From Candidatus Nanohalarchaeota archaeon (GTDB taxonomy: Archaea; Nanohalarchaeota; Nanosalinia; Nanosalinales; Nanosalinaceae), in assembly GCA_022729235.1 (NCBI GenBank), contig JALDAJ010000001.1:256001-320000 (forward strand): a DNA stretch of 64,000 bases, given 5' to 3'. Of this stretch, positions 393 through 44,573 are shown piece after piece. Within the stretch, counting starts at the first letter, position 1. Each line of letters opens with the position of its first letter. A model generated the notes under the pieces. It was not told where the DNA came from and made no database searches. It saw only the letters and a list, made by a program, of their open reading frames with translations. The translations under genes and the position numbers were made by a program.

Positions 393-2123
393 GATGTAGG
401 AAGAGACGGAACTTTGATAGCATCCATGCGGAGCTGTCTTATGTTTGACAGCTCCACGGTGTGTTCCACGGCTTTCTCCGTTCAGGAGATAGCCGTTTGA
501 GAAACCTGTTCTGCAGGTTTCGACGTCAGAACCCTCCAACATTTGTTGGAGCAACTCCGGTTGATCCTGCCGGAGGCCACTGCTATCGGAGTCCTTTAGC
601 CATGCTAGTCGTCCGGGCTTCGCGCTCGGGGCGGATAGCTGAGTAACACGTGGCTAACCTACCCTGCGGACGGGGATAACCTCGCTAACGTGAGGCTAAT
701 ACCCAATATCAGAGGAATGCTGGAACGCGTCCTCTGTGAAATGCTCCGGCGCCGCAGGATGGGGCCGCGGCCGATTAGGTTGTTGGTGAGGTAACTGCTC
801 ACCAAGCCGATAATCGGTAGCAGCCGTGAAAGCGGGAGCTGCCAGTCGGCTTCTGAGACAAGAAGCCGGACCCTACGGGGTGCAGCAGGCACTAATTCTT
901 CACAATGCGCGAAAGCGCGATGGGGGGACTCCGAGTGCGTTCTTCCTACAAGGAAGGGCGCTTTTCTGCACTTTAAGACGGTGCAGGAACAAGGGGCGGG
1001 CAATACTGCTGCCAGCCGCCGCGGTAATAGCAGAACCCCAAGTGGTGGTCGCTATTATTGGGCTTAAAGCGTTCGTAGCCGGCCATGTAAGTCTGCTGTG
1101 AAATCCACGCGCTTAACGTGTGGGCGTGCAGCGGATACTGCATGGCTAGGGACCGGATGGCGTTGGAGCTATTCCCGGGGTAGGAGTGAAATCCTAAAAT
1201 CCCGGGAGGAGCACCTGTGGCGAAAGCGTCCAACGAATACGGATCCGACGGTGAGGAACGAAAGCCGGGGGAGCAAAGCGGATTAGATACCCGCGTAGTC
1301 CCGGCCGTAAACATTGCCTGTTTGATGTCGGACAACCCTTGTGGTTGTCCGGTGCCGAAGTGAAAACGTTAAACAGGCCGCCTGGGGAGTACGGTCGCAA
1401 GGCTGAAACTTAAAGGAATTGACGGGGGAGCACCACAACCGGTGGGGGCTGCGGTTTAATTAGATCAAACGCAGAGCACCCTACCAGAGCCGACAGCAGA
1501 ATGACGGTCAGCCTAAAGGGCTTACCTGACGCGCTGAGAGGAGCTGCATGGCCGCCGTCAGCTCGTGCCGTGAGGTGTCCGGTTAAGTCCGGTAACGAGC
1601 GAGACCCGCATCACATGTTGCCATGGATCCCTCCGGGGATTCGGCACTCGTGTGAGACCGCTGGCGATAAGCCAGGGGAAGGCGCGGGCCACGGTAGGTC
1701 AGTATGGCCCGAATGCTCTGGGATACACGCGGCCCACAATGGCTGGTACAAAGGGATGCCACCCCGAAAGGGGAAGCTAACCCCCTAAAACCAGTCCTAG
1801 TCCGGATTGAGGACTGCAACTCGTCCTCATAAAGGCGAAATCGGTAGTAGTCGCTGGTCATCATCTAGCGGCGAATAAGTCCCTGCTCCTTGTACACACC
1901 GCCTGTCAAGTCACCCGAGTCAGGTTCAGACGAGGACCTGGGTTTCCAGGCCCAAGTCTGAGCTTGGCAAGGGGGGCTAAGTCATAACAAGGTAGCCGTG
2001 GGGGAACCCGCGGCTGGATCACCTCCAGAAAACTTAGCTTCTGCCACACAACCGGCAGAAGCCTCACACATCACTTCCAGGAACGCTATCAGCCTGGAAT
2101 GAGAATCCGTCTCTTCTTACATC
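393..2123 (+). other. 16S pre-rRNA processing stem (arms 393-410 and 2106-2123)
   Basis: GATGTAGGAAGAGACGGA pairs with TCCGTCTCTTCTTACATC (one G-U); followed by a T-rich tract at about 2125-2152. Confidence 0.75.
553..2027 (+). rRNA. rrs: 16S rRNA (archaeal)
   Basis: 5' TCCGGTTGATCCTGCCGG, GCCAGCCGCCGCGGTAA, AAACTTAAAGGAATTGACGG, TTGTACACACCGCC, 3' GGATCACCTCC; about 1475 nt, no intron. Confidence 0.99.
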
Positions 2124-2196
2124 CTTTACTTTTTGCTTTCTCTGAACTTTTTCCGAAAACTTTTAATACGCAGAAAAACAATGTTACTATGTTACA

Positions 2197-2613
2197 ATGA
2201 CAAAAATGAAGGATTATACAGAGCTAGCAAGTCAGGAAGAATCCGATTTGGAACTCAGAAGAGTAGAAGTAGCCGAATATAACTCGAAAGAGTGGGTATA
2301 TCAAATATGGAGAAACCAAGACACAGAGGAAGACTATGTCAGTGTCCTAGGTGAGCTAGAAAATACTAGCGAATACTGCAAAAATCACAGGTTTGAAGGA
2401 GACATAGAGGAACATATTCTGGAAGACGATAGGGTATACAAATGGAGTCCTTCAAATACTGAAACCGAAGCTACCGTAGTATCTGTCCACAAGTACGACG
2501 AAAAAGATAGACCTGAAACCGCAGCCAGCATCAAAGCATTGGACAAAAACGGAGAAGATGCCGAAGATTTAGAAACCATCTTAGAATCTAACCTAAATCA
2601 AGATCCTGTATAA
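2197..2613 (+). CDS. Hypothetical acidic protein
   Basis: 138 aa ORF, acidic composition typical of this genome, no recognised motif. Confidence 0.7.
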   Translation: MTKMKDYTELASQEESDLELRRVEVAEYNSKEWVYQIWRNQDTEEDYVSVLGELENTSEYCKNHRFEGDIEEHILEDDRVYKWSPSNTETEATVVSVHKYDEKDRPETAASIKALDKNGEDAEDLETILESNLNQDPV

Positions 2614-2684
2614 TATACCTGTACATACCTCTGCATCCCTCAGACTGTAAAGAAGGGTTTATAAACAGTCGAGAAACCCAGTGC

Positions 2685-3029
2685 ATGAGTCACGCCGATG
2701 CCTCGACCGAGCACTCTGGAAGATCAGCCGCGTATGAAGCAACTAGAAGCCTGGAAGAAGATCTTGATCCTCTCAGACCCTCTGAAACCGACATCAATCT
2801 TTCAAGAGAGTACCGATCCGATGAAAACACATTAATCCTCAGTTACGAGGCGATCCCTACCGAGTTCGCAGAACAAGAACTCGAGGACGCTGAAAAAGCT
2901 AGCGGAAAACGCCGACTGAAACCAAAAACAGAGGAGAAAGCAAAAAATCTCTACGAAGGATGGCTAGAGGCGTTCAGCGAACTTCATGCCAGGTCAATCT
3001 TATACGAACCTTGGGACTCCAACATCTAA
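2685..3029 (+). CDS. Hypothetical protein
   Basis: 114 aa acidic ORF with TTTATAAA about 20 bp upstream. Confidence 0.65.
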   Translation: MSHADASTEHSGRSAAYEATRSLEEDLDPLRPSETDINLSREYRSDENTLILSYEAIPTEFAEQELEDAEKASGKRRLKPKTEEKAKNLYEGWLEAFSELHARSILYEPWDSNI

Positions 3030-3188
3030 GGAAACTGATTACAACCGCGTACAAGAACCATTGCATAATATTTCGCCCCCCTCAAAATGAAGCACCTGTT
3101 TTACATATCGCTGTCAACCCTCGCCGCGTTCTCCACCTGGAAGAAGCGATCGGAAACATCATAACACCTCATGATAACTTTCCAGTTA

Positions 3189-42838: not shown

Positions 42839-42864
42839 ACCTTGAGCTCTATACAGCAGACGTT

Positions 42865-43338
42865 ATGACAGACAAAAAAGCAGTGGCGCTCGCCATATAT
42901 GAAAGCAGTGAGAAAAGTAGCATTCTAAGTGTTTTGAGACCGGAAGATGATGAGGACCATCCAGGAGTTTGGGGGATGCCAGCTACCTCTCTGAACGATG
43001 GAGAGTCTTGGGAAGAAGCGGTGCGCCGCGCAGCAAGAGAAAAGCTCAACGTTGAAATAGAAAGCATAGAGTTGTTGAGCGAAGGAAAACAGTCTAGAGA
43101 CGATTACGACATCACTCTTAGAAACTATCAGGCAGAAATAAAGGGCAATCAAACACCTGATGTTCAGGAGGCTTCAACTACAGGAACCAAATACGAGGAA
43201 TGGGACTGGAAACCAGTGAACCAGATGAAAGAAGCAGCGACAGAAACGGCAAGCCTCTGCACAACATTGATTTTAGATCTGCACGAAAAGGAGTTTGATA
43301 GGCCAGAGAATATAGAAAGAGTCAAGCATTACGCCTAG
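42865..43338 (+). CDS. NUDIX hydrolase (divergent box)
   Basis: WGMPATSLNDGESWEEAVRRAAREKL. Confidence 0.8.
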   Translation: MTDKKAVALAIYESSEKSSILSVLRPEDDEDHPGVWGMPATSLNDGESWEEAVRRAAREKLNVEIESIELLSEGKQSRDDYDITLRNYQAEIKGNQTPDVQEASTTGTKYEEWDWKPVNQMKEAATETASLCTTLILDLHEKEFDRPENIERVKHYA

Positions 43339-43478
43339 AAAGTCGTCTCTCCACCGCCGCAGACCCTGCAGCCATATTCGAGCTTGTCCTCTCTGCATAC
43401 CTGGGAGCCGCAGACCTCACAGGTCGTTACCGCTGGCCTTTCGTTGCAGTAATCGCAGAGAGCGGATGTTTCTTGCAT
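43335..43478 (-). CDS. Small Cys-rich zinc-finger protein (47 aa, not in ORF track)
   Basis: MQETSALCDYCNERPAVTTCEVCGSQVCREDKLEYGCRVCGGGETTF*. Confidence 0.78.
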   Translation of the reverse strand: MQETSALCDYCNERPAVTTCEVCGSQVCREDKLEYGCRVCGGGETTF

Positions 43479-43517
43479 CACGTTACTTGTTAAAGTTCTA
43501 GCGGTAAAATCTTTTGC

Positions 43518-44543
43518 ATGGGAGTTGATCTAGGTGACCTCGTGGAGCCGGAAGAAATCGAGTGGGCGGAACTACATGACAAGGAGCTTGCTATCGATGC
43601 GATGAACACGCTTTACCAGTTCCTGTCGATTATCAGGCAGAGAGACGGTACCCCGCTCAAAGACTCGCAGGGGCGTGTCACCTCCCATTTATCCGGGCTT
43701 TTCTACAGGAATATCAACCTGCTGGAGAACGGTATAAGACCGGTATACATCTTCGATGGCGAGACACCCGAGCTCAAGGAGAAAGAGTCTTCTCGAAGAA
43801 GAAAGAAGCGGGAGGAAGCCCGGGAAGAATGGAAACGCCTCAAGGACGAAGGTAAAGTCGAAGAGGCTTACACCAAGGCAACACAATCCTCCAGACTAGA
43901 CGGCGACATGATACTTGAGGCGAAGAAACTGCTGGACGCGATGGGAATACCCTACATAGATGCGGTAAGTGAGGGAGAAGCCCAGGCAGCCCACATGACC
44001 CGGTCGGACGAAGGTGATATATACGCGGTCGGGAGCCAGGACTGGGACTGCCTGCTGTTCGGCGCGGAAAAGATGGTCAGGAATCTTACAACGCGGAAGA
44101 AGCGGAAGACCTCTAGCGGCGGGAAGAAAGAGGTATCCGTCGAAAGAATAGAGCTTGAAGACGTCCTTGACGAACTCGAAGTTTCGCAGGAGAAGCTGGT
44201 CTGGATGGGCATCCTGATGGGAACCGACTTCAACCCGGACGGGGTCAAAGGTATAGGTCCGAAGACCGCGCTCAAGCTGGTGAAAAAATACGACAGTTTT
44301 GAAGAACTTTTAGAAGATGAAAAAGTCGACTTGGATATGGAAAGGGCGGAGAAGATACTAGAGCTTTTCATGGATCCTCCGGTCGAAGAAGTTAGCTACG
44401 AGTTCAGTTCACCGGATAACGGCAGGATAAAGGAGATACTTGTAGAAGAACATGACTTCTCAGAAGAGAGAATTGATTCAGGTCTTGACAAGCTTGAGAA
44501 GGCGCTTGAATCGAGACAGTCAGGGCTGGAAAGCTTTGTCTGA
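43518..44543 (+). CDS. fen: Flap endonuclease 1
   Basis: AIDAMN.LYQFL, SHLSGLFYR, EGEAQAA, SQDWD, GTDFN, GIGPK, C-terminal PIP box QSGLESF. Confidence 0.98.
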   Translation: MGVDLGDLVEPEEIEWAELHDKELAIDAMNTLYQFLSIIRQRDGTPLKDSQGRVTSHLSGLFYRNINLLENGIRPVYIFDGETPELKEKESSRRRKKREEAREEWKRLKDEGKVEEAYTKATQSSRLDGDMILEAKKLLDAMGIPYIDAVSEGEAQAAHMTRSDEGDIYAVGSQDWDCLLFGAEKMVRNLTTRKKRKTSSGGKKEVSVERIELEDVLDELEVSQEKLVWMGILMGTDFNPDGVKGIGPKTALKLVKKYDSFEELLEDEKVDLDMERAEKILELFMDPPVEEVSYEFSSPDNGRIKEILVEEHDFSEERIDSGLDKLEKALESRQSGLESFV

Positions 44544-44573
44544 CATCTTATCTCCCGAGAACTCTGATTTTCG

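Follow-up and report, generated by a model that had tools for sequence, protein, structure and literature searches.

A 64,000-nucleotide (nt) stretch of DNA from a Candidatus Nanohalarchaeota archaeon (assembly GCA_022729235.1, contig JALDAJ010000001.1, positions 256,001 to 320,000; this whole stretch is hereafter the window) raises the question of why one small hairpin recurs in its ribosomal RNA (rRNA) spacers, tRNA introns, RNase P RNA and operon spacers. A first-pass annotation of the window had described these hairpins as a dispersed family of palindromic modules, and had read them either as a non-autonomous element resembling the repetitive extragenic palindromic (REP) sequences and bacterial interspersed mosaic elements (BIMEs), or as an RNA module forming a kink-turn (K-turn) bound by the protein L7Ae. 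Our analyses confirm this observation in part and support a part of its interpretation, and they have also identified what it overlooked, viz. a two-hairpin unit, the placement of this unit at start codons together with an upstream reading frame, and duplicated tRNA ends beside the copies. The explanation that we favour, at a probability of roughly 0.55, is that the hairpins belong to a lineage-wide, non-autonomous insertional cassette, which is kept where its RNA folds harmlessly and has possibly been co-opted as a translational-coupling leader.

The genome under study is a single contig of 1,027,595 bases with 48.5% G+C. Coordinates without a prefix are window positions, those preceded by G000:C1 refer to the whole genome, and labels of the type G001 denote related genomes.

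Identification of the hpB hairpin family

The core of the hairpin, here termed hpB, reads N-AGAA-R, followed by a variable stem of 3–7 base pairs (bp), a loop of 3–9 nt, and then Y-TTCGA (in RNA, YUUCGA). A strict scan for this pattern retrieved 52 copies from the 1.03 Mb genome, seven of them in the window, against expectations of 10.7 for the genome (mean of 10 runs, range 5–16) and 0.36 for the window (100 runs, maximum 2) from first-order Markov resamples, which were used in place of exact dinucleotide shuffles. These counts rule out that the scaffold is no commoner than in resampled sequence, and the hpB family itself is not a chance product; with about 10.7 copies expected, about one fifth of the strict copies may nonetheless be due to chance. 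As a control, the same hairpin rule was combined with 11 other 3′ tails and retrieved 3–19 copies each from the real genome, while the reverse-complement form of the rule returned 54 copies, which are the same set.

A covariance model of hpB (R1) was built from 46 aligned copies and scored against the window with filters off. The hairpin sequences quoted in the first-pass annotation are all present where it placed them, and nine of its 14 listed copies match R1 at E ≤ 0.02 (496–526+, 3647–3673−, 7277–7305+, 12056–12082+, 12446–12473+, 24963–24986−, 30826–30852+, 32521–32549+ and 42078–42104−), seven of the nine having been in the training set of the model. Four further listed copies are weak matches (32547–32573−, E 1.3; 32499–32516−, E 4.1; 29433–29461−, E 1.6; and the reverse-orientation copy in RNase P RNA, Table 1), and one, a degenerate copy at 44554–44572, has no R1 match at E ≤ 5. 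A copy missing from the earlier list, 32464–32495− (E 0.008), brings the window matches at E ≤ 0.02 to 10. The weak match at 29433–29461 lies in a long tRNA intron that had been attributed to tRNA-Asn; hairpins with GA feet are present there, and the Asn identity is unsettled. At this place (29341–29525, minus strand) Rfam calls a 185-nt tRNA and ARAGORN calls an Ala(AGC) tRNA with a 112-nt intron at an odd position.

The 22-mer reported as common to a tRNA-Arg intron and the top6 spacer is indeed identical at both places (30827–30848 and 42082–42103, 100%), and alternating-orientation clusters of the BIME type do occur, at 32464–32574 in the window and at four further sites in the genome. Two copies had been assigned to the wrong strand: those listed as plus-strand copies at 30827 and 32525 are hairpins of minus-strand cassettes. 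A covariation count on the hpB alignment is circular, since the copies had been chosen for pairing; independent support for a dispersed, structured family with variable stems comes from the comparison of orthologous sites across relatives, where compensatory changes are found.

The two-hairpin cassette

The working unit is usually a cassette of 55–60 nt, in which a hairpin A (hpA) is followed by a short linker and then by hpB; in most hpB copies this other hairpin lies 1–3 nt upstream. The cassette occurs in three layouts. In the canonical introns of three tRNA-Arg genes (TCT, GCG and TCG), tRNA-Thr(CGU) and tRNA-Lys(UUU), the order is CCUC-AA, hairpin, GAGG-ACN, hpB. The second layout, that of the 16S leader, the 23S trailer and RNase P RNA, consists of an 11-bp hairpin with a central U.U mismatch, a G-U-Y-U-G linker and hpB. 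In operon spacers and tRNA flanks the first hairpin takes the form GAAAAUC-loop-GAUUUUC and is joined to hpB by a linker such as UGGACUCGC. The first hairpin of this third layout is hpB read backwards, which accounts both for the plus-strand copies that had been listed within minus-strand operons and for the alternating clusters. By inspection, the ends of the cassette are TCGAAAA... and ...TTTTCGA.

In an alignment of 40 cassettes from 29 genomes, 94.5% of the cells are paired and double changes occur at 17 of 19 pairs, figures that lean towards structure because the alignment was fitted to the model. Compensatory changes in the stems (e.g. from GAAAAUC/GAUUUUC to GAAUCU/AGAUUC in this genome) alter the peptide of the upstream frame described below; what is conserved is the RNA fold together with an open frame of fixed length, and not the peptide. 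A hammerhead reading of the linker CUGAGGA with GAAA was rejected by inspection, as there is no stem II between the two and the intron-type linker is without the U.

Leader cassettes at start codons

The occurrence of cassettes directly at the start codons of protein genes is a newly recognised context. Twelve cassettes preceding protein genes were collected from five genera, and in eight of them the stretch from an upstream ATG through the start codon of the next gene measures exactly 59 nt. The upstream ATG opens a 19-codon frame that spans both hairpins and whose stop overlaps the next start in the forms GAGUGA, GAAUGA or UAAUG (i.e. GUGA, AUGA and UAAUG overlaps), and most upstream-frame ATGs are seen by inspection to have a GGAGG- or GGTGA-like motif on their 5′ side. 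The loop and 3′ arm of hpB read GAGGUG or AGGUGAU, complementary to the 16S 3′ end (GGATCACCTCC; as matched to the Shine-Dalgarno sequence in hpB, GGAUCACCUCC), while the 5′ arm, which reads AUCACC or ACACC, is itself similar to that end of the 16S rRNA. The downstream gene's own Shine-Dalgarno sequence is thus predicted to be paired inside hpB. Judged by sequence, these cassettes have the features of termination-reinitiation leaders, viz. an upstream frame with a ribosome-binding site and a stop that overlaps or abuts the next start.

A second covariance model (R2), representing the two-hairpin leader cassette, was built from nine sequences, and its matches in genomes were counted at E ≤ 0.001. 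At 19 of the 29 best R2 loci, the match ends with the three bases of the start codon of an open reading frame (ORF) of at least 60 amino acids (aa); at the remaining 10 loci, the ORF starts 3–6 nt later in four cases and no such ORF is present in six. Twenty downstream ORFs were scanned and named by Pfam (RpoB, S4, S19, an RNase PH-domain protein, aIF2-gamma, S8, Spt4, S7, L11, S24e, ProRS, S3 twice, ATPase c, S2, a transketolase-like protein, L21e, RNase J, L24 and an HhH protein), and 16 of them belong to translation, transcription or RNA processing. The names L14, L5, L30, L3, L1, S19 and aIF2-gamma in this genome, and L4 in G001, were read from N-termini and not from Pfam.

The leader cassettes of the window precede Top6B and Top6A (Pfam names), in a minus-strand operon with the order KH-domain gene, leader, Top6B, leader, Top6A (Table 1). 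The hpA of the second leader is the copy that had earlier been listed on the plus strand, read backwards. The upstream frame of the first, extended leader begins at 32574, and its last hairpin contains AGGTGAT, 8 nt before the Top6B ATG at 32465. The Top6B-Top6A spacers of G001, G015 and G020 (loci L130, L131 and L132) contain unrelated upstream frames of 21–31 codons, with hairpins; these frames end at or over the Top6A start and the hairpin holds the Shine-Dalgarno sequence. Start-codon leaders with upstream frames would seem to be a general habit of this family of archaea that extends beyond the R2 cassette.

Gain and loss of cassettes among related genomes

The distribution of the family was determined by a prefiltered search with at most 150 candidates scored per genome, so that the copy numbers given here are lower bounds. 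The scan of this genome and its relatives by covariance model, which the first-pass annotation had proposed, yielded R1 matches in 31 of 41 related genomes and 32 copies in this genome at E ≤ 0.01; R2 matches are present in 28 of the 41, with 0–26 copies each and 18 copies in this genome. R2 has no match in four genomes of the same family, of which three are 96–99% complete and one is 79% complete, nor in most genomes of two other families. This genome, G001, G006, G007, G020 and G023 are examples of genomes rich in cassettes, and G016, G017 and G019 of genomes free of them. An exact 21-mer of the cassette was found in eight contigs among 185,579 species genomes, five of the eight being nanohaloarchaeal or uncultured-archaeon records, and viral contigs contained no exact match to it.

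The empty orthologous sites that the first-pass annotation had proposed to look for were indeed found, as differences in presence and absence between relatives. The rpoH-rpoB spacer has a cassette in this genome and none in all 10 of the other genomes read, including the same-genus G001. Likewise, the KH-Top6B spacer lacks a cassette in all five others (G001, G005, G007, G015 and G020). These empty spacers end in ..ATACT ATG at the Top6B start, and in this genome the same context precedes the upstream-frame ATG, so that the filled site has an ATG on each side of the cassette; with the native context before the upstream ATG and Top6B after the cassette, the cassette is positioned exactly at the start codon. 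In G007 the Top6B-Top6A spacer is empty.

At tRNA-Lys(UUU), which is filled in three of six genomes, G007 carries 52 nt of inserted sequence, behind which 21 nt of the tRNA 3′ end are perfectly repeated. The site is empty in G023, a member of the same genus as G007, and in G005 and G008, and it holds one insert in G001 and two in this genome. Between G007 and G023, three of eight gene-adjacent G007 cassettes have a counterpart among 15 in G023, a degree of sharing that may be higher because 12 of 16 and 20 of 26 matches were compared. These comparisons show that close relatives differ by gains and losses of cassettes in their DNA.

Cassettes in stable RNA genes and beside tRNAs

The residence of the hairpins in RNA genes and their spacers, as first described, is borne out (Table 1). 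The 16S and 23S rRNA genes of the window (554–2027 and 4280–7213) are 2.2 kb apart, and the sole tRNA between them is a tRNA-Cys on the minus strand (3730–3878) with a 73-nt intron; they may not share one operon, since the only intervening tRNA is on the opposite strand. The 16S leader module ends 30 nt before the start of the 16S gene. The same arrangement is present in the same-genus G001 (with one compensatory pair), in G011 and in G015, with a variant in G007. The module is kept in four of the five genera read; the first hairpin is followed by one hpB in this genome, G001 and G011, and by three in G015. In a co-fold prediction, the 23S trailer module branches off sideways from the trailer strand of the long helix formed by leader and trailer. 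In G001 the trailer hpB is retained, and the first hairpin differs in sequence and still pairs.

The archaeal-type RNase P RNA is 484 nt long versus 288 positions in the Rfam model. It carries about 200 nt of insertions, on account of which its score falls under the curated Rfam cut-off of 84, and it is host to two module copies. Its two-hairpin insertion and the 23S trailer module share 85% identity over 55 nt. In G001 the equivalent of the weak reverse-orientation hairpin has the same shape with a different stem sequence, and the RNase P RNA of that genome shares the 3′ module and has a further 49-nt two-hairpin module that is missing here.

Table 1. Positions of hairpin modules, cassettes and their RNase P RNA host in the window.
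Feature	Position	Strand	Characteristics	Match
16S leader module	469..523	+	11-bp hairpin 469–496 with central U.U mismatch, TTTG linker, hpB 500–523	E 0.001
tRNA-Cys flank cassette	3635..3706	−	hpA 3675–3696, hpB 3650–3669	E 3.4e-5
23S trailer module	7248..7302	+	hairpin, TCTG linker, hpB	E 1.2e-5
RNase P RNA, archaeal type	11625..12108	+	RF00373	79.8 bits, E 1.9e-21
Weak reverse-orientation hairpin, RNase P RNA 5′ region	11652..11678	−	in expanded stem-loop	E 0.36
RNase P RNA two-hairpin insertion, 51 nt	12028..12079	+	between P2 3′ strand and conserved ACAGAA	
tRNA-Arg(TCT) intron module	12420..12470	+	CCTC-AA, hairpin, GAGG-ACC, hpB 12450–12470	E 3.5e-4
tRNA-Phe downstream insert	24935..25004	−	segment antisense to T-loop/T-stem, then hpB 24963–24986	E 0.0023
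Top6B-Top6A leader cassette	30801..30858	−	AGGTGAT, ATG of 18-codon frame, hpA	E 0.0022
Top6A leader 3′ part	within 30801..30858	−	degenerate hpB holding GAGGTG, then Top6A ATG	
KH-Top6B extended leader cassette	32466..32574	−	four hairpins of alternating orientation	E 1.3e-5
tRNA-Arg(GCG) intron module	42081..42133	−	CCTC-AA, hairpin, GGGG-ACC, hpB 42081–42100	E 5.7e-5

An Rfam search detected five tRNAs with long insertions in the window, none of which was called by ARAGORN at default settings (0 tRNAs in the window); with introns allowed, ARAGORN called 35 tRNAs genome-wide, 20 of them intron-bearing. Of the 52 strict hpB copies, 23 are located inside a called tRNA or no more than 150 nt from one, and when their orientation was tested, 18 of the 23 were on the strand of the tRNA. 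The host tRNA introns have a bulge-helix-bulge motif at their own ends, and none was found by folding and inspection in the hairpin module itself, in the RNase P insert or in the tRNA-flank inserts.

For nine tRNAs, the tRNA's own 3′ or 5′ end is duplicated within 150 nt, and the insert between the two copies contains hpB, often along with a short segment antisense to the T-loop and T-stem. In the window, the insert downstream of tRNA-Phe ends in a 30-nt duplicate of the tRNA 3′ end and trailer (24935–24964, 93%). The tRNA-Cys flank cassette, situated about 60 nt downstream of the intact tRNA-Cys, is followed by a second tRNA-Cys 3′ end (3635–3652) and is 86% identical over 57 nt to a module downstream of tRNA-Gly(GCC) elsewhere in the genome. 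The latter recurs in G003, G006 and G008, with a conserved first hairpin and an hpB stem that differs and still pairs; in G008 the module stands, together with a tRNA-Gly end, behind a protein gene, and there is no tRNA for 3 kb around. One 55-nt insert is common to tRNA-Lys and tRNA-Trp, each with a repeat specific to that tRNA, and arrays of 3–4 tRNA-end repeats occur at tRNA-Lys and tRNA-Pro. At tRNA-Gly, tRNA-Cys and tRNA-Pro, the hpB tail UUCGA doubles as the T-loop of the duplicated end, a mimicry of the T-arm that is limited by the pairing of the UUCGA bases within hpB. A T-loop intron or split tRNA as the source of the duplicated ends was rejected, since the first copy is mostly a complete tRNA and no bulge-helix-bulge forms.

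Several other tRNA loci deserve mention. The arrays of 3–4 tRNA-Pro 3′ ends (G000:C1:156523–159699 and 554773–555699; loci L126 and L127) bound small islets, and two longer intervals bounded by these repeats contain RHH-ParE toxin-antitoxin pairs and a HEPN gene. At tRNA-Tyr and tRNA-Leu(GAG) (G000:C1:716069–716220 and 931204–931291; L034 and L039) the duplicated ends are 5′ ends, of 21 and 25 nt including upstream flank, which adjoin an hpB on the opposite strand and form the mirror image of the 3′-end duplications. The tRNA-Met at G000:C1:92052–92328 (L016) has a 203-nt intron containing box C/D-like words (GAUGA twice, CUGA), in which an hpB stem closes a two-hairpin insert; the intron may bear a guide RNA. 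The 5′ flanks of tRNA-Pro(GGG) and tRNA-Ser(UGA) (G000:C1:555700–555830 and 590817–590930) contain a hairpin, UGUAUCCACA and a second hairpin, and these are outside the hpB family.

Search for a mobilising enzyme

The first-pass annotation saw no mobilising enzyme in the window, and our searches of the genome for three enzyme families found none linked to the cassette. The Y1 HUH transposase domain (PF01797) has no match in this genome and matches in only one of 41 genomes (G039), control genomes being positive, and the sole TnpB match in this genome is sub-threshold. Two tyrosine recombinases are encoded in the genome, neither of them at cassette or duplicated-tRNA loci, and no autonomous relative of the cassette was found in the Y1 HUH, TnpB and tyrosine recombinase searches. 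The 417-aa tyrosine recombinase at G000:C1:862442–863695 (minus strand) lies directly downstream of tRNA-Thr(GGU) (863906–864053), as in an integrated element, and no repeat of the tRNA-Thr(GGU) end was found near this gene.

Evolutionary interpretation of the cassettes

Under the explanation that we favour, cassettes would enter DNA and then survive only where the transcript tolerates an independent pair of hairpins, and the positions found suggest that they persist only in transcribed, non-coding slots. In stable RNAs (introns, pre-rRNA spacers, RNase P expansions and duplicated tRNA ends) the cassette would be tolerated as a self-folding side branch or, alternatively, be removed along with the intron or spacer. 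In front of protein genes, the old Shine-Dalgarno sequence and start codon would now open the 19-codon upstream frame through both hairpins, and a new Shine-Dalgarno sequence in the 3′ arm of hpB would be hidden by pairing with the 5′ arm, whose sequence is like that of the 16S tail. Translation of the gene would then fall chiefly to ribosomes that open hpB while reading the upstream frame and subsequently re-initiate.

A number of observations weigh against this explanation. The exact abutment of cassettes on start codons would need targeting or very strong selection. No mobilising gene was found in searches that covered Y1 HUH, the TnpB zinc-ribbon domain and tyrosine recombinases only, and neither a clear target-site duplication nor true terminal inverted repeats, as in miniature inverted-repeat transposable elements, were demonstrated; one filled site has an ATG on both sides. 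The zero counts in some genomes may reflect drift of the motif. Lastly, cassettes at unrelated loci and in different genera all keep a likeness of about 80–85% to the consensus, and several positions (in the 16S leader, in the 23S trailer and at the 3′ insert of RNase P RNA) have been retained between species or genera through compensatory changes; this suits a role in the host as well as, or better than, selfish spread.

A bolder proposal, which we regard as speculative and well short of even odds, is that of an active mobile leader which would seek initiation codons and the ends and T-loops of stable RNA genes, and which would carry its own hairpin of anti-Shine-Dalgarno-like and Shine-Dalgarno arms. 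Such an element would rewire ribosome, RNA polymerase and topoisomerase genes to termination-reinitiation, and the AGAA/UUCGA foot may be the handle of one protein that both moves and reads the cassette.

The main rival to the insertional cassette is a host regulatory motif, in which one RNA-binding protein would read the hpB foot in the precursors of rRNA and tRNA, in RNase P RNA, and in the leaders of genes for ribosomal proteins and RNA polymerase. In this way, translation of the mRNAs would be linked to the supply of newly made stable RNA, much as in autogenous control, and the sites would turn over like those of a regulon. The functions of the downstream genes (16 of 20 in translation, transcription or RNA processing) speak for this motif, as do the Shine-Dalgarno sequence inside hpB, the fixed 59-nt geometry in eight of 12 cassettes, the 16S leader module kept in four of five genera, the maintenance of structure at orthologous sites by compensatory change, and the bias of copies to the sense strand (18 of 23 near tRNAs). 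Nevertheless, no candidate protein has been identified, four genomes of the same family (three of them 96–99% complete) are without a match, the set of cassette-bearing genes differs strongly even within a genus, and the copies in introns and beside redundant tRNA ends have no obvious regulatory use. We therefore consider a host motif unlikely as the primary explanation; it is compatible with the insertional-cassette reading and the two are not exclusive.

The K-turn proposal applies best to those copies in which the AGAA foot is preceded by G (G-type copies), which would form K-turns or k-junctions bound by L7Ae. In this geometry the upstream hairpin would be the canonical (C) helix, the 3-nt linker (UUU or ACC) the bulge and hpB the non-canonical (NC) helix, with the two GA steps as tandem sheared pairs. 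Both archaeal RNase P and rRNA are known to have L7Ae as a subunit. The copies of the rRNA leader and trailer, RNase P RNA and the canonical introns do read helix, 3 nt, GA, stem...stem, GA, and a predicted helix ends 2–3 nt before the GA in 10 of 19 G-type copies. However, the 3′ GA is invariant while just 16 of the 46 aligned copies have the required 5′ G (C in 22, A in 4, T in 4), the leader cassettes are almost all C-type, and the 16S leader hairpin of G007 has no 3′ GA. Moreover, the non-bulged strand does not continue into the C helix, because the upstream helix is a separate hairpin. The proposal is not supported for the family as a whole; for the G-type copies, which lie in rRNA spacers, RNase P RNA and tRNA introns, we regard it as possible and quite improbable.

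It is also very improbable that the tRNA-adjacent copies are remnants of integrase activity, with the duplicated ends as attL and attR and the hairpins as the arm of an element beside attR. According to a published model (PMC3293823), tRNA fragments and introns derive from integrating elements, and several of the present observations are suggestive of such an origin, viz. the tRNA-end repeats within 150 nt of nine tRNAs, the perfect 21-nt repeat at the filled tRNA-Lys site of G007 versus the empty site of the same-genus G023, the 3–4-repeat arrays at tRNA-Lys and tRNA-Pro, the RHH-ParE and HEPN genes in the longer tRNA-Pro intervals, and the G008 module with a tRNA-Gly end behind a protein gene. 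Yet the inserts, at 52–115 nt, are far too small for integrative elements and hold no gene, the same 55-nt insert is present at both tRNA-Lys and tRNA-Trp with each having its own repeat, neither tyrosine recombinase is at these loci, and the copies in introns, RNase P RNA, rRNA spacers and at start codons are left unexplained. The weakest explanation, a REP/BIME system mobilised by a REP-associated tyrosine transposase (RAYT, of the HUH Y1 type), has in its favour the many short extragenic palindromes and the alternating clusters, and is largely refuted and exceedingly improbable because this genome has no HUH transposase and 31 related genomes carry the hairpin while only G039 has a Y1 domain.

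Comparison with known systems and implications

The insertional cassette shares features with several known systems and is distinct from each of them. Like the REP/BIME (REPIN) sequences of bacteria, it consists of palindromic units of 20–30 nt with covarying stems, present in tens of copies in transcribed operon spacers as singlets, inverted doublets and alternating-orientation clusters. Unlike them, it is found in an archaeal lineage without a RAYT gene, its copies also lie inside stable RNA genes and introns, and many are placed exactly at start codons and bring with them a start codon, an open frame and a Shine-Dalgarno sequence. The double-hairpin elements of fungal and sponge mitochondria comprise two adjacent hairpins with no encoded enzyme, differ in presence or absence between relatives, and occupy intergenic regions, introns and the variable parts of RNA genes. 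All of these traits are matched by the archaeal cassette, which differs from such repetitive hairpin elements in residing in a free archaeal genome, in its AGAA/UUCGA foot and in the translational-leader form of some copies.

Transposed tRNA introns, in which related intron sequences occur in several tRNAs, are known in archaea, and the cassette-bearing introns are similarly related across several tRNAs. Fragments of tRNA genes beside intact genes, as seen with the cassette-flanked tRNAs, are likewise described (PMC3293823). In contrast to transposed introns and integrating elements, the part shared here is a hairpin module that also occurs outside tRNAs, measures tens of nt and has no recombinase. 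The G-type copies are similar to the K-turns of archaeal 5′ untranslated regions, RNase P RNA and C/D RNAs in having a GA-footed hairpin, a 3-nt linker and a second helix, and they differ from L7Ae-bound K-turns in strand continuity; most cassette copies also lack the obligatory G. Translational coupling by termination-reinitiation and leader hairpins that sequester the Shine-Dalgarno sequence are both known concepts. Judged by its sequence, the cassette resembles such leaders in the overlap of the upstream stop with the next start and in its paired ribosome-binding site, and departs from them in being a dispersed, near-identical repeat before unrelated genes that differs between close relatives.

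Small palindromic repeats are familiar in bacteria and organelles and not as a system in DPANN archaea, and a literature search found no report of such repeats in nanohaloarchaea. The genomes of DPANN archaea are thought to be stripped of spare DNA; the present genome of 1 Mb devotes dozens of sites to one cassette, in the cell's most important transcripts, those of rRNA, tRNA, RNase P RNA, ribosomal proteins and RNA polymerase. Insertions of the cassette may explain the under-calling of tRNA and RNase P genes by standard searches in these lineages; ARAGORN at default settings called none of the five tRNAs of the window, and the RNase P RNA score is below the Rfam cut-off. If the leader form works as proposed, it would represent a portable translational-coupling device that is directly testable and might serve as a tool, and if the cassette is mobile, it would provide a handle on the origin of introns and expansion segments in archaeal RNA genes.

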